In this document: piece by piece, positions 47,001 to 53,000 of the stretch
Numbering within the stretch: the first letter of the stretch is position 1
How the letters are laid out: every line of letters starts with the position of its first letter
From: an uncultured Gemmatimonadota bacterium
GTDB taxonomy: Bacteria; ARS69
NCBI GenBank assembly: GCA_964471155.1
Contig: CAYYFX010000001.1
Span: forward strand, 45,596 to 109,595
Reading direction: 5' to 3'
Length of the DNA: 64,000 bases
Program-made: the position numbers

Positions 47001-50000
47001 GCGTCCTCCAGGCCCACCACCTCGCCGCGCTCCATCAGGAAGTAGAAGTAGTACGACACCCGGCTGCTGACCGGTCCGCCGGACAGGATCTTCCACACCC
47101 ACGGCGTCTCGAAGTCGAACTCCGCGTCCGCGTCCTCCTTGTACGACGCGTAGCCTTCCAGCCGGACCGCCAGCGGGAGATCGCGGGCCAGGCGCAGGAG
47201 CGGATCGCCCACGTCGTACGTGGAGCGCGCCGGCTCCTGGCCCTCCTCCATGCGGAAGCCGCGGCCGGCGAACTCCTCGCCGTACGGCTTCAGCCGCGGG
47301 AAGGGCGCGTGGCACGTGGTGCACGAGATCTGGTACTTGCGGGCGAACGCCGGGATGGCGCCCGCGTCCGTGGCGGACAGCGCCACCGCCAGCACGCCGA
47401 GGGCCGCCGCCCCGCCGATGCGCAGGCCGATGCGTCGCATGGTTCCTCCCCCCGTCCCGCTACAGGACCGTGAACGTGGTGGTGTGCGTGTTGATGCGGA
47501 CGGGCTCGGACTCCTCGCGCGGCACGCCGAGGTACTCGGCCACCGACGACACGAGCCGCGAATACCACACCTCCGCGGTCACGGTGACCGGGCCGGGCGC
47601 CACGTCGGCCGGCAGCGTCCACGTGAAGGTCTCGTTCACGGCCGCGAGCGGCGCGAGCCGGTAGTCCGGACCGAACGACGCCGTGTTCCACTGCGCGATG
47701 GTCATGCGACCCTGCGGATCCAGATACGGCAGGCGGAAGATGCGGTCGCCGTCCGGCACCTCGCCGTCGCGCGGCAGCCCGGCGAACCCGGACTTGCCCT
47801 CGATGTCGCCGATGTCCTGGTAGGCGAGCGTGGCGGCCGACGCGATCGTCAGTTCCTCGCCGGCGAAGCCCTTCGCGTCGACGGGCAGGTGCCAGCTCCG
47901 TCCCTTCGCATCCGTGGCGGTCACGTGCAGCCACAGCACGCGCTCCTCGGCGGAGCCCGTGGGCACCTTGTGTCCGGCCTTCGCGTTCACGAGCGTGGCC
48001 GTGAGCTGCACCTTGTCGCCCGGCTCGGCCTCGCGGGTCTCGGGGTGGATGCGCACCTCGATCACGCCGGAGAGCTTCCCGGGGTCGTGCGCGCCGTGGA
48101 ACAGGTGCTGGCGCGCGTCGGGCAGCACGTCGCCCATGGCGGCGGTGGCCGCGGCGGCCGGCGGCATGTGGCACTCCTGGCACACGATGCCCGCCTTGCC
48201 GTGCGGGCCGTCCTTCCACTCGAGATGCGTGGACTTCACCCACATCCCGAACGGGTCCTTCTCGTTGTGGCACGTGCCGCAGAACTCCGCCGTCTTCAGG
48301 AACGGGTTCGCCACGGTCTCGTGGTGCGGGCTCTCGCGACCGCGCGTGCCCTGCTTCAGCTCGCCGGGCTCCGAGATCCAGTTGAAGTTGAACGGGGTGT
48401 CGCCCTCGAAGCCGGTGATCGTGTGGCAGACGTCGCACGACACGGACTCGTTCGCGCGGGACTTCTCCTCCGGGTGCGGCGGCGGGATGTCGCCCGCCAG
48501 GAACGCGAGCGGCGCGTGGCACCCGTTGCAGCCGGCCTTCACGCCGGCCACCTTCGGCTCCTTCTCCGCGTGCGGAACGGCGAGCTTGAAGTACTCGATC
48601 TCGTCCCAGTGGTGCGTGTACGCCTGGGACATCATCGCCTGCTCGTGCTGGCGGGCGAAGTCCACGTGGCAGGTGGCGCAGGCCTCGGGGCGCTCGTACT
48701 GGTCGTACTTGCGGGTGCCCAGCGCGGCGTCGCCGGCGGGCGTGCCGGAGGCGGTGGAGGCGGCAGCGACGACGAGGGCGAGCGAAACCACGGGCAGCGC
48801 TCGGGCGGCCCGGGCCCGGCGGGGCACGTTCATGGGTGGTCCTCCGGGCGCCGACGGCGGGGGGCCACGTCCGGAGCGGCACGGTCCAAGTTGCGGGGCG
48901 CCGGGGACGCGGGCAAGGCCGCCCGTGCGGGGGCCGGCCGATCGTCTTCACCCGATACGGGGTGGTGGTGCGCGTGCCGCTACCCGATGCGGGGAGAGCG
49001 ACGTCAGGCCGCCGGCGGTCGCGGGGCGTCCCGCACCGCGGCGTGCAGGATCTCGGCGAGCAGCGATCCCCGCCAGTACTCCACGTGCGCCGCGAGCGGC
49101 GTGCTGGCGGCGGGGTCCTCCCGGTTGACCACATGCCCCTCGGCTTCCGGGTGCTCGTCGTAATAGTCGATGGCGCCGCTGATCCAGTCGTTGCGCGAAT
49201 GCAGGTTCACCCACGGCGGGCGGTCGTAGGACTGGATCATCGGCTGGACCGATGCGGCCAGCGCCTCCCGCAGCACGGACGTTCGCTCGTCCGCCTGGGT
49301 GCGGAAGAGGAAGGCGGTCTTGTCCAGCGGGGAGCCGAACGTGACGAACAGCGGCGTCCGCTCGCGGACGCGCAGCACGCCATCCCACCCGCGGTCCTCG
49401 TTCAGGATGGCGTTCAGCGAGTCGTACGCCACGACCGAACCGAGCGAGTGGCCGGCCACGACGATGCGGTCGTACTCCAGCGCCGGCGCGCCGGGGGTCC
49501 GCGCCGCGTATACCGCGCGGAAGACGGCCGCCGCCGCGCCCTTGATGGCCGCGCGCGTCTCGTGGAAGCGGTTGACGCGGTGGCCGGACACGTAGATCGC
49601 CACGTCGCCCACGTATTGCATGAGGAAGTGCTCGACGCCGCGGGCCACCAGCATGACCAGCGCCCACAGCACGAGCGCCACCGGCCAGTACGCGCGGCCG
49701 AGATCGCGCCATGCGGGAAGCGCGTCCGGCGCCGCGAAGGCGACCGCGGCGGTGGCCACGAGCGCCGCCGCGGCGAGGATCGGCGTGGCCAGCGCCGTCC
49801 AGATCAGGCCGCGCGTGAGCACCGCGGCCGCCCGCGACGCCTTCGGATGCGCGCGATGCACCGACGCGATCGCCCCGCCCGCGAGCCCGAGAACGGCGAA
49901 GCCCAGCAGGTTGGCCCAGAGGATCGGCAGCCGGAGGGCCTCGGCCACCGGGCTGCCGGCGCCGATCCCGAGCAGCGACGCGCCGAGGAGGGCCGGAATG

Positions 50001-53000
50001 GTGAGCCGCAGCACGGCGAGCGCGCCGATGAAGAGCAGCGTGAAGCACAGGTGCGCCACCGTCCTCGGCAGCGCCTTCAGCGACACGTAGCCGCCGAACA
50101 TCCAGCGCCGGAAGGGGCGGCGCGCGGCGCGGACCCCCCGGATGCCGGCGCGCACGAGGAAGTCCACGGTTTCCCGGGCGGAGATCTTCCCCTCGGTGAG
50201 CGGCGCCCAGTACGCCTCGTAGATGTGGACGTTCCGCGGCGCGCCGCCGCCCCCGCCGGGAACGCGGATCTCCGCGCGGTGCAGCCGCTCGTCGCCGATG
50301 CGGACCTCGCGCACGACGACCTCGCCGTCCGACGCCCACGGCAGCAGCAGCCGCGCCACCTGCTCCAGGGTCTCGAAGCGGACCTGCTGCCCCATGCCGT
50401 GGGCCACGAGGACGGCCGTGTTCGGCGCGGCCGGCAGCGGCCCGGACGCCGCGGCGGGATCCGCCGCCTCCAGGCGCAGCGGCGGTTCCAGCCGGGCCCG
50501 CGCCTCCGTCACTCGAACGCCAGGGTCAGCTTGAGGCCGACCTGCTGTTTCGAGTCGTCCAGCGTGGTATCCACCTTCACGGCCACGTCCCGGGAGAACT
50601 GCATCGTGAGCGTGCCGTCGAAGGACAGCGAGCCGTCCAGCAGCGACTTCTCGAGGTCGCCCTCCGCGCGGATCCTCCCCTTCGCGCCGAACCGCTTCTC
50701 CACGTCGCCGCCGACGCGCAGCGACAGCTCGTCCGCCTTGGTGTAGTCGATCCCGAATCGCGCCTTCGCCGCGTCCGCCACGAGCAGTTCGATCGTGGCC
50801 CCGGCGCTGGGCGTGAGCACGCCGTCCTTCCGCTTCCCGTCGGCGACGACGGTGACCTTCACCTTCGGATCGGCCATGGGGCCCTGTCTCCTTCCGCGGG
50901 AGGCGGCATTGTAGCGAAGTTCCGGGGCGGGCGAGGAGCTCGGCGCGCAGGCGCGGCGGGCGATCGGGGCCGACTCCTGGGGAGGGTCAGCTCCTCCGGA
51001 ACATCCACCAGGTCTCGACGCCCGGCGCGATCCGCGCGTGGTCCACCACCTCGTAGCCGACGTGCTCGTACAGCGGCACGTTCGCCGGGTCCTCGGTGGT
51101 CAGCGTGACGCCCTGCACGGCCGGCGTCCTCCGCGCGATCTCCTGCACGTGCTCCAGGATCACCCGGCCGAGCCCGCGGCCGCGGTGGGGGGCGCGCACG
51201 CCGATCATGTTGAGGTGGATGTGCGGGACGTCCACGGAAAACCTCTCCCACACCTTGCCGCAGGTCTCGTAGCGGGCGCGCGCGTCCGCGCCCACGTCCG
51301 CCCACAGCGCCTCGCGGTGCGCGGCCACGGCCGGGGGGCTCTCGCGGCCGTCCGGGATGGTCACGATGGCCGCCGCGGCCAGGCGGCCGCCGTCCCCGTC
51401 CGCGATGCCGAGCAGGGGCTCGTCGCGGTGCACGCGCGCGGCCACGAAGAAGTCCACGGCCTTGCGCAGGGCGAGCGGATCCGCGGTGCCGCCGAACACG
51501 AAGCGCATCACGGGGTAATGTGCGAACGCCTCCGCCAGGACCTCCGCCACGCGCGGCGCATCCGCCGGCGCGAGGTGCAGCACCTCCGGCCCGCTCTGCA
51601 GACTCACTCGTCCCCCCTCGGTTGCACGCGCCGGTCGAACAGGAGGATGCCGCGCGCCGCGTCCACGGCCTCGTGCGTGCCGGCCAGCGCCAGGCAGTCC
51701 CCCGCGCGGAGCGCCTCGCGCGCGGTGGGGACGATCACGCCCTCGGCGCCGCGCACGATCGCCAGCACCGTGGCTCCGGTCCGGCCGCGCAGGTCCAGCT
51801 CCGCGAGCGTCTTCCCCACCGCGGGGTGATCCGGCGCGAGCGTGACCGCCACCGGTTCGCCCAGCCCCGGGAGGAAGTTCCGCACGCTGTCGAGCTGCGG
51901 CGCCGCCGCCCCCTGGCCGCTTCGCGATTGCTTCGCGAGTACTTCGACAATCATACGCGCACCGGCCCGGACGTGTCCCTGCAAATTCGTGGCGCTCCGC
52001 CAGAACGCGATTGCAAGCGCGGCGACCAGGCCGCCGCCCACGAGTGCGGTCTCGGGGCCCTGCAGGAACGGCTGCGTGATCGCCAGGAGCAACAGGACGA
52101 TGGGCAGGACCACCGCGATCTGCAACGTGACGACGAAGGCGCGCCGCGGGGCGTCCGCGAGGTCCACCCGGTCCTCCCCCGCCGCCGGCAGGACGATCTC
52201 GGCCAGGGTCATGCCCAGCCGGTTGGCCGTGCGGAAGATGCCGACGCCCAGCGGCACCGCGACGGCGGCCGCCGCCGCCATCACGAGGATGCGGGCGGGA
52301 AGGTCGCCGATGCCGAACGTCCGCTGCGCCCAGGGCGCCACGGCGACGGTGGCCGGGGCGAGCCCGATGGCCAGGCCGGCCAGGAGCGCGGCGTCCAGCA
52401 GCAGCAGGCCGGACAGCGTCCGCACGGTGCTGACGGAGGACTGCGGCCGCGCGGCCGTGGCGAGGCGCTCCACCCAGCTCCCGTAGAGCGCGGCGAACGT
52501 CTGGAGGCGGCGCGGGAGCTTGCGGTCCACGAGGCGGGCGGCCGGGCCGGTGGCCCGGATCAGGGCCGGGGTCGTGAGGGTCGTGATCGCGGACACGGCC
52601 ACGGCCACAGGGTAGAGGAAGGTGCCGGTGGCGCCGAGCTGGATCCCCAGGGCGGCGATGATGAACGAGAACTCGCCGATCTGGGCCAGGCTCATCCCGG
52701 CGGCGACCGACGTGCGGACCCCCTGTCCCGCCAGGAACGCGCCGATGCTCACGCCGACGATCTTGCCCACGACCACCACGAGGAGCAGGACCACCACGGC
52801 CACCCAGTGCTCCAGCACGAGCGCGGGGTCGATGAGCATGCCGACCGAGACGAAGAAGATCGAGGCGAACATGTCGCGGATGGGCCGGATCAGGTCCTCC
52901 ACGCGGTGCCCCTCGCCGGACTCCGCGACGAGGGCGCCGGCGATGAACGCGCCCAGGGCCACGGAGTACCCGAACTTGTGCGCGAGCAGGGACACGCCGA

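Follow-up and report, generated by a model that had tools for sequence, protein, structure and literature searches.

What kind of enzyme carries lipase-type catalytic motifs on either side of a set of hydrophobic helices, and on what would it act? The question is raised by two minus-strand genes in a 64,000-nucleotide stretch of DNA (the window; G+C content ~72%) from an uncultured Gemmatimonadota bacterium (assembly GCA_964471155.1, contig CAYYFX010000001.1, positions 45,596 to 109,595). One gene encodes a 502-residue protein, referred to here as the hydrolase, and the gene upstream encodes a 122-residue protein, the small protein. Our analysis indicates, with high confidence, that the hydrolase has a membrane-integrated architecture in which the catalytic domain is split in two. 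An initial annotation had described both open reading frames (ORFs), the GTG start of the hydrolase, the GTGA overlap, a VLVAHGMGQQ block (residues 34-43), a GHSLG motif and four hydrophobic segments, all of which are present as it described them. It had placed the two motifs ~250 residues apart, a distance that must be corrected to ~315 residues (His38 to Ser356). Its reading of the protein as a lipase-type α/β-hydrolase, with HG block and nucleophile elbow parted by real transmembrane (TM) helices, is borne out by the evidence below. The gene and its catalytic features are as follows.

49004-50512, minus strand: whole hydrolase gene, GTG start, for a predicted 502-residue integral-membrane serine hydrolase of the α/β-hydrolase fold.
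50069-50512, minus strand: N-terminal catalytic half, residues 1-148, strands β1-β4, with HGMGQQ after strand 31-38 (DSSP assignment of the model).
50384-50401, minus strand: HGMGQQ, residues 38-43, an oxyanion-hole-type HG block straight after a β-strand, invariant or nearly so in 64-120 homologues.
49007-49588, minus strand: C-terminal catalytic half, residues 309-502, with αB, β5-β8 and the predicted catalytic residues (DSSP and conservation).
49436-49453, minus strand: GHSLGS nucleophile elbow, residues 354-359, in a strand-turn-helix; Ser in 120/120 homologues; a sub-threshold Lipase_3 alignment is centred there.
49319-49339, minus strand: FGSPLDK, residues 392-398, invariant, after β6; aligns with LFGSPLG of the Nir2 DDHD domain (conservation and alignment).
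49187-49189, minus strand: Asp442, predicted catalytic acid, four residues past strand 434-438 (119/120 homologues; DSSP placement).
49073-49087, minus strand: HVEYW, residues 476-480, with the predicted catalytic His476 (119/120) and an invariant Trp480; aligns with FHASYW of Nir2 (9c37_A).
49592-49609, minus strand: GDVAIY, residues 302-307, with invariant G302, D303, V304 and Y307, at the end of TM4 predicted to be cytoplasmic, the point of return from the bundle to the catalytic domain.

The AlphaFold2 model of the hydrolase, computed from a 64-sequence alignment, has a predicted local distance difference test score (pLDDT) of 92.1 and a predicted template modelling score of 0.92. N-terminal strands precede strand 31-38, which runs into HGMGQQ; one helix and one hairpin separate this block from strand 93-101. 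Next come helix 112-130, hairpin 134-145, four long helices (149-180, 188-220, 227-260 and 275-308) and helix 314-335. Strand 349-355 then leads into Ser356 and helix 357-375, strand 388-392 into FGSPL, strand 434-438 into Asp442 and strand 462-465 into His476. In the model, this order of elements is that of a canonical α/β-hydrolase with a four-helix bundle inserted between β4 and αB, and the mostly parallel central sheet with its flanking helices resembles solved structures of the fold. The small-x-nucleophile-x-small pattern of a nucleophile elbow occurs as G354-H-S356-L-G358 between strand 349-355 and helix 357-375, and H38-G39, directly after strand 31-38 as in HG-type oxyanion loops, is invariant in the 64-sequence alignment.

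We thus predict Ser356-Asp442-His476 as the catalytic triad and HGMGQQ as the oxyanion loop. The Ser-Asp-His order, the placement of these residues at the β5, β7 and β8 positions and their conservation all agree with the superfamily pattern. Among 120 homologues, Ser356 is kept in 120, Asp442 and His476 in 119 each and the HG block in 118, and because of this retention the members of the family look like active enzymes. The N-terminal half contains further invariant residues (A33, H38, G39, M40, G41, Q43, T48, R79, E99, W102, A103, G108, F118, L119, R136 and F139), two of which lie, together with G302, D303 and Y307, at the junction between the bundle and the catalytic domain. The HGMGQQ block itself resembles a nucleophile elbow in which Gly replaces Ser (AHGMG versus AHSMG), and its six residues are kept more strictly than in the usual oxyanion loop.

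The segment that separates the two halves is composed of the following elements, delimited with the Kyte-Doolittle and Hessa scales.

49589-50068, minus strand: inserted four-helix TM bundle, residues 149-308 (both scales and AlphaFold2 helices).
49979-50059, minus strand: hydrophobic core 1, residues 152-178 (both scales).
49862-49930, minus strand: hydrophobic core 2, residues 195-217 (both scales).
49736-49810, minus strand: hydrophobic core 3, residues 235-259 (both scales).
49634-49687, minus strand: hydrophobic core 4, residues 276-293 (both scales).

Kyte-Doolittle hydropathy in 19-residue windows exceeds 1.6 in these four cores alone, with peaks of 1.8-2.1, and the best 19-mers of the cores have energies of 0.9, 1.2, 1.1 and 3.3 kcal/mol on the Hessa translocon scale, compared with 9-17 kcal/mol for this protein's soluble helices. 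AlphaFold2 models the insert as four helices of 32-34 residues (pLDDT ~87-96). Across 64-120 homologues the hydropathy of the insert is kept (family means of 2.13, 1.87, 1.70 and 1.65) despite scant sequence conservation, and the mean number of Lys and Arg residues alternates from 4.7 before TM1 to 1.3 in loop 1-2, 4.2 in loop 2-3 and 1.8 in loop 3-4. The insert ranges from 76 to 343 residues in the family, with clean versions of 2, 4, 6 and 8 hydrophobic helices; a change in twos is expected if both flanks must keep to the same side of the membrane. A crude peak counter also returned 3 and 5 helices for some proteins, and 5 for the window protein, for which AlphaFold2 gives four; we read these odd counts as threshold artefacts. 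Because the two hydrophobicity scales, the alternating loop charge and the 2/4/6/8-helix variants agree, we take the four segments to be true TM helices.

The same alternation of charge, through the positive-inside rule, would place both catalytic halves in the cytoplasm, and the absence of an N-terminal hydrophobic segment and of a signal peptide from the hydrolase agrees with this orientation. Midway along TM1 lies a conserved polar residue that could contact a lipid head group or ester: 69% of the family have Asn at this position, and the window protein has Arg (R169, in the region of 50004-50008 of the window).

The family to which the hydrolase belongs is large. More than 1,504 homologues were found at E ≤ 1e-3 (8,000 candidates scored), and a scan of one genome per GTDB species gave at least 543 confirmed loci. 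The best 80 of these are mostly from Acidobacteriota, Gemmatimonadota and Candidatus Eisenbacteria, and include members from Betaproteobacteria (Gallionella, Sideroxydans, Janthinobacterium), Hymenobacter, Ignavibacteria, Planctomycetota, Acidimicrobiia, Udaeobacter and Methylomirabilota. The closest among the loci listed (L006, 84% identity) is from a Gemmatimonadota metagenome-assembled genome and is syntenic with the window. Among the 120 best-listed homologues, two have a generic esterase label and the rest are named "hypothetical protein"; precomputed Pfam domains are absent from all 120, and the hydrolase itself stays below threshold for every Pfam, NCBIfam and PADLOC model. Literature searches on membrane-split α/β-hydrolases and on prokaryotic DDHD proteins found no description of the family. 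The architecture is unusual and no curated family covers it; the family is an unnamed, widespread branch of the α/β-hydrolase superfamily with a distinctive split-domain membrane architecture.

Across many phyla the hydrolase is a stand-alone gene in unrelated neighbourhoods, a distribution like that of a housekeeping gene. Distant homologues lie among peptidases, an amidase, a GNAT gene with a thioesterase, a two-component system or an ABC transporter, and clustering of all ORFs in 84 hydrolase loci revealed no recurrent neighbour. A conserved operon was accordingly rejected: apart from shadow ORFs of the hydrolase, the clustering brought out response-regulator receivers of a generic kind (9 loci) and, in 6 loci from closely related Acidobacteriaceae, an MFS transporter.

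We compared the family with known ones by scanning the 64 aligned members against Pfam at E ≤ 0.1 and the isolated C-terminal half at E ≤ 10. Marginal matches were obtained to Lipase_3 (45 of the 64 members; best E-value 1.5e-4), LCAT (26; 0.0034), PGAP1 (26; 0.0056), DUF900 (24; 0.0017), Abhydrolase_6 (21), DUF676 (16; 1.2e-4) and LIDHydrolase (6), the E-values quoted all being sub-threshold. The Lipase_3 gathering score (22 bits) was reached neither by the full protein (15.8 bits) nor by the C-terminal half (17.9 bits), and those of PGAP1, DUF676, LCAT and DUF900 by none of the 64 members. The LCAT and DUF900 matches sit on the VLVAHGMGQQ block, away from the true elbow. Pfam DDHD (PF02862) matched neither the members nor the C-terminal half at these respective thresholds.

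Among solved structures, the closest fold is that of the DDHD domain of Nir2, of the eukaryotic intracellular phospholipase A1 (iPLA1) type; other near neighbours are thioesterases (ClbQ, BorB, TesA, RedJ), carboxylesterases and S9 peptidases. Full-protein searches of PDB sequences, with the single sequence or a profile, returned G-protein-coupled receptors and transporters, which we rejected as spurious matches caused by the hydrophobic insert, and the profile was therefore split into its soluble halves. With the DDHD hypothesis fixed in advance, a search of 177,635 sequences with the C-terminal-half profile placed a second Nir2 DDHD entry, 9c37_A, at rank 3 (E = 0.56). No other entry had two ordered stretches that match motifs invariant in the family: GHSLGSVVAYD.L aligns with GDGVGGILGFDAL, TFGSPL with LFGSPL and AH.EYW with FHASYW. 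Arylesterases, the top matches of the N-terminal-half profile, were set aside, their alignment falling at a non-homologous position.

In the α/β-hydrolase fold, the active site lies at the C-terminal ends of the parallel strands, and αB begins at the same edge. A bundle inserted between β4 and αB would therefore emerge from the active-site face, and the fold topology suggests that the active site of the hydrolase faces the membrane. We propose, with moderate confidence, that the protein is an inner-membrane-embedded, cytoplasm-facing serine acyl hydrolase or transacylase that draws lipids out of the inner leaflet, either by way of its TM bundle or alongside it. The enzyme would be permanently built into the cytoplasmic membrane by the four helices, which would occupy the active-site edge of the sheet, the lid position of class 3 lipases, and its two catalytic halves would reassemble into one domain on the cytoplasmic side. 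With both connections between bundle and domain on the active-site face, the catalytic centre would rest against the inner leaflet and could take acyl-ester substrates straight from the membrane. It may act as a phospholipase A, a lysophospholipase or, with water excluded, a transacylase that remodels the lipids of its own membrane. We infer a lipid substrate from the lipase-type motifs and the structural neighbours, and lipid remodelling is our best functional guess.

Several points weigh against this proposal. Many substrates of α/β-hydrolases are not lipids, the hydrolase stays below the threshold of every curated lipase family, and the genomic context of the hydrolase suggests no pathway. 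The positive-inside rule is the one basis of the orientation. For the link to DDHD proteins, an E-value of 0.56 is not significant for a blind search, and the N-terminal-half profile does not retrieve Nir2 from PDB sequences.

The alternative that survives best, and that we nonetheless consider unlikely, is a membrane-anchored hydrolase of a non-lipid substrate, such as a thioesterase, an acyl-protein deacylase or an S9/S33-type peptidase working at the cytoplasmic face, with the bundle acting as a tether or regulator. Many of the nearest structural neighbours are such thioesterases, carboxylesterases and S9 peptidases, and the sub-threshold lipase scores fit this explanation as well. Four observations argue for a lipid substrate instead: (i) the insert is not terminal, being placed on the predicted active-site face; (ii) the residues at the junction of bundle and domain are invariant; (iii) the recurrent marginal matches are to lipid-acting families (Lipase_3, LCAT, PGAP1, DUF676 and LIDHydrolase); and (iv) GHSLG, FGSPL and the DDHD resemblance point to lipids.

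The opposite orientation, with a periplasmic catalytic domain acting on the outer leaflet of the inner membrane or on periplasmic lipids, appears improbable. It has a precedent in PlaF, the one characterised bacterial membrane-bound phospholipase A1, whose domain is periplasmic (PMC9132575), and our assignment draws on charge statistics alone. The hydrolase differs from the PlaF-type architecture, with four internal helices, no N-terminal hydrophobic segment and a charge bias that points to the cytoplasm. In addition to lacking a signal peptide, it has 148 folded residues ahead of TM1, and Lys and Arg are enriched in the segments contiguous with the catalytic halves and in loop 2-3 (4.7 and 4.2, versus 1.3 and 1.8 in the other loops).

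Does the gene act together with its upstream partner? The features of the two-gene arrangement are listed here.

50509-50877, minus strand: small gene, ATG start, for a 122-residue, probably all-β protein, a lineage-specific upstream partner (ORF read).
50509-50512, minus strand: GTGA overlap of the hydrolase GTG start and the small-gene TGA stop (sequence read).
50887-50895, minus strand: strong Shine-Dalgarno sequence GGAAGGAGA, 9 nucleotides upstream of the small-gene ATG (direct sequence reading).

The junction reads GCGTTCGAGTGACGGA, with GTG and TGA sharing GTGA. This overlap is not a start-codon artefact, since the GTG is the earliest start available downstream of an in-frame stop, the aligned start position is common to most homologues and the model has confident strands at residues 5-8 and 12-16. 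A related locus, L001, has the identical 4-nucleotide overlap (small gene, 5636-6004; hydrolase, 6001-7488). Direct inspection detected no Shine-Dalgarno-like motif before the hydrolase GTG; because a strong one precedes the small-gene ATG, coupling by termination-reinitiation fits, and translational coupling of the two genes is plausible in the lineage of the window. A promoter and terminator scan found nothing, a result that is uninformative in a region of 73% GC.

The small protein had been called acidic and β-rich. The first term hardly applies, as it contains 20 Asp and Glu residues against 19 Lys and Arg (isoelectric point 5.5); the second is plausible on a slender basis, namely an unreliable AlphaFold2 model with strands only (pLDDT 38) and weak matches to β-proteins, and we consider that the protein is probably all-β. 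It has no signal peptide and no Pfam or PDB assignment, and a deeper profile of 46 sequences gave no significant match in PDB or Pfam, the weak ones being scattered over β-rich proteins (best in PDB, the hypothetical outer-membrane protein 3rwx_A, E = 0.004). It has eight close homologues, on contigs equal in size to those of the closest hydrolase relatives. An exhaustive profile search gave 42 representative clusters, all of ~115-134 residues, and an Asp-Tyr pair is the sole family-wide near-invariant feature. Nearly all members end in hydrophobic-x-Phe (…TLAFE, …TIRF, …KIAF), like the C-terminal β-signal of outer-membrane barrels, which sits oddly with the absence of a signal peptide. Candidate roles are those of a regulator, an inhibitor or a carrier of lipids or fatty acids.

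By tblastn, the small gene is present in 2 of 85 hydrolase loci (L006 and L001) and in none of the 83 others; it occurs only beside the closest hydrolase relatives (at least 56% identity). The distant members of the small-protein family that we examined are followed by a convergent gene and have no hydrolase nearby. The proposed co-translated unit thus stands for the closest relatives and falls elsewhere, and the pairing is a recent, clade-specific arrangement within Gemmatimonadota, accessory to the hydrolase and outside any conserved machinery.

These data bear on a further alternative, a two-gene toxin, effector or defence module in which a membrane-disrupting phospholipase is accompanied by the small β protein as immunity factor, chaperone or sensor. 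The GTGA overlap with its probable translational coupling, the retention of the pair in all close relatives seen, CHAT-TPR and AAA_14/DUF4143 genes near one related locus and a RES-Xre pair 3 kb away in the window would suit such a module. We judge it very improbable, given that neither protein has a PADLOC match, that the small gene is absent from 83 of the 85 loci and its distant relatives lack an adjacent hydrolase, that distant hydrolases stand alone among housekeeping genes, and that the hydrolase, with no secretion-system genes around it, appears to be an integral membrane protein of the producer itself. The phospholipase effector role that the initial annotation thought possible is not supported: a signal peptide, a secretion-system or immunity setting and a PADLOC match are all lacking, and the catalytic domain of this membrane protein is predicted to be cytoplasmic.

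We give almost no weight to a catalytically dead scaffold or lipid sensor, for which the best structural neighbour, the pseudo-lipase DDHD domain of Nir2 with Gly for Ser (PMC12582312), offers a model, as Ser356, Asp442, His476 and the HG loop are kept in 118-120 of 120 homologues, as selection for catalysis predicts. It is equally hard to credit that the hydrophobic segments form a soluble hydrophobic cap or lipid-binding four-helix domain: AlphaFold2 cannot distinguish membrane from solvent, TM1 has its polar residue and TM4 is the weakest (Hessa 3.3), but the four cores are consecutive and 18-27 residues long with family-mean hydropathies of 1.65-2.13, a Hessa gap of 6-16 kcal/mol separates them from the soluble helices, loop charge alternates, hydrophobicity stays while sequence drifts and helix number varies by twos.

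The surroundings of the pair in the window comprise a GNAT gene and a Na+/H+ antiporter upstream and a multihaem cytochrome c gene downstream, followed by a RES-Xre toxin-antitoxin pair and an MsrB-MsrA fusion. These and other nearby features are given below.

47460-48833, minus strand: 457-residue multihaem cytochrome c with several CxxCH motifs and Cytochrome_C7, NapC/NirT and MtrC-like matches.
46247-47440, minus strand: 397-residue ORF, 19 nucleotides downstream of the cytochrome gene, with a signal-like N-terminus, one CTTCH and no Pfam family.
45706-46209, plus strand: RES-domain toxin.
45216-45704, plus strand: Xre/MbcA/ParS-type antitoxin, with an Xre-like helix-turn-helix and a C-terminal toxin-binding domain.
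44032-45174, plus strand: fused MsrB-MsrA methionine sulfoxide reductase (SelR and PMSR), with a hydrophobic, lipoprotein-like N-terminal region.
53801-54355, plus strand: 184-residue DUF2204/DUF6036-type nucleotidyltransferase.
54554-55300 and 55291-57318, both minus strand: LytS-type histidine kinase and LytTR response regulator, ~4 kb from the hydrolase.

The cytochrome and the 397-residue ORF may form a cytochrome/outer-membrane partner module; the Gemmatimonadota relative L006 has a 397-residue ORF at the corresponding position. The RES-Xre pair is complete, its genes lying one base apart, and the N-terminal region of the MsrB-MsrA fusion suggests that this protein is exported or membrane-anchored. 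Proteins of the DUF2204/DUF6036 type frequently supply the MNT component of a HEPN-MNT toxin-antitoxin pair. A similar LytS/LytTR pair (L005, 3533-5448) adjoins the distant homologue P0119 in divergent orientation; a link with the hydrolase was rejected as probably due to chance, with no recurrence over 84 loci. In L001 (the relative with P0006), a segment at 1011-5558 between a GNAT gene and the small-gene/hydrolase pair encodes a 1,043-residue CHAT-TPR protein and an AAA_14/DUF4143 ATPase; it is a possible defence-type insertion and is absent from the window.

α/β-Hydrolases rank with the most thoroughly studied enzymes, and are normally attached to membranes by a terminal helix or an amphipathic lid. 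Here the catalytic domain would itself be split by a modular TM bundle at the lid position, in a large family that Pfam and NCBIfam lack and whose many host phyla, from soil and freshwater, are poorly studied. If the model is true, it shows an interfacial enzyme hard-wired to its lipid substrate. Little is understood of how bacteria degrade and remodel their membrane lipids in a controlled way, and a cytoplasm-facing enzyme would fill a gap; the clear predicted catalytic site makes the family an easy target for activity-based probes.

Four groups of known systems invite comparison with the family. PGAP1, DUF676, LCAT, DUF900 and LIDHydrolase proteins share elbows of the GHS(L/M)G type and either act on lipids or are associated with membranes or lipid droplets; unlike in the hydrolase family, none has a catalytic domain split by a TM bundle. 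Lipase_3 (PF01764) is the commonest marginal match (45/64), centred on the nucleophile elbow, and in class 3 lipases the lid is placed before the nucleophile. In DAGL-α and DAGL-β, a Lipase_3 domain that faces the cytoplasm and has a membrane lipid as its substrate is joined to four TM helices. Their four helices are N-terminal and leave the catalytic domain uninterrupted, whereas in the hydrolase family the bundle splits it.

PlaF of Pseudomonas aeruginosa, a phospholipase A1 bound to the cytoplasmic membrane, was described as the first membrane-bound enzyme of its kind and proposed to serve in a bacterial Lands cycle (PMC9132575). As a bacterial, membrane-held α/β-hydrolase that deacylates the glycerophospholipids of its own cell, it is the nearest characterised functional analogue. 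It has one N-terminal TM helix, a separate three-helix lid and a periplasmic domain, in contrast to the internal 2-8-helix bundle and predicted cytoplasmic domain of the hydrolase family, and no detectable sequence relationship was seen between the two.

The DDHD/iPLA1 proteins comprise DDHD1, DDHD2, SEC23IP and PITPNM1/Nir2, and the active DDHD enzymes carry a GHSLG pentapeptide identical to that of the hydrolase family (PMC5395975, PMC4085702). Nir2 aligns with the family at the YD past the elbow, at FGSPL and at H..YW, with the non-significant E-value given above. DDHD2 has a triad, Ser351/Asp541/His681, verified by mutation, acts as lipase and transacylase, and requires a membrane-binding helix located in a loop of the catalytic domain (PMC12663969); the Nir2 DDHD domain binds phosphatidic acid and phosphatidylserine (PMC12582312). 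The hydrolase family differs in being bacterial and without WWE or SAM domains, in having integral TM helices where DDHD proteins have a peripheral amphipathic helix, and in carrying its insert before the nucleophile, whereas the main insertion of DDHD1/2 comes after it. We regard DDHD/iPLA1 as the characterised family most like that of the hydrolase, perhaps distantly related to it, and not as the family to which the hydrolase itself belongs. A bolder proposal, which we offer as speculation and think unlikely to hold, is that the hydrolases are a prokaryotic branch of the DDHD/iPLA1 lineage, so far regarded as eukaryotic, in which a 2-8-helix TM bundle serves as a lid that feeds inner-leaflet lipids to a cytoplasmic Ser-Asp-His site. 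If true, a bacterial Lands-type cycle of acyl remodelling in Acidobacteriota, Gemmatimonadota and related phyla of the soil could have its phospholipase A or transacylase on the cytoplasmic side in this family. Eukaryotic DDHD lipases are mutated in hereditary spastic paraplegia, and a demonstrated link would provide a bacterial model for them.

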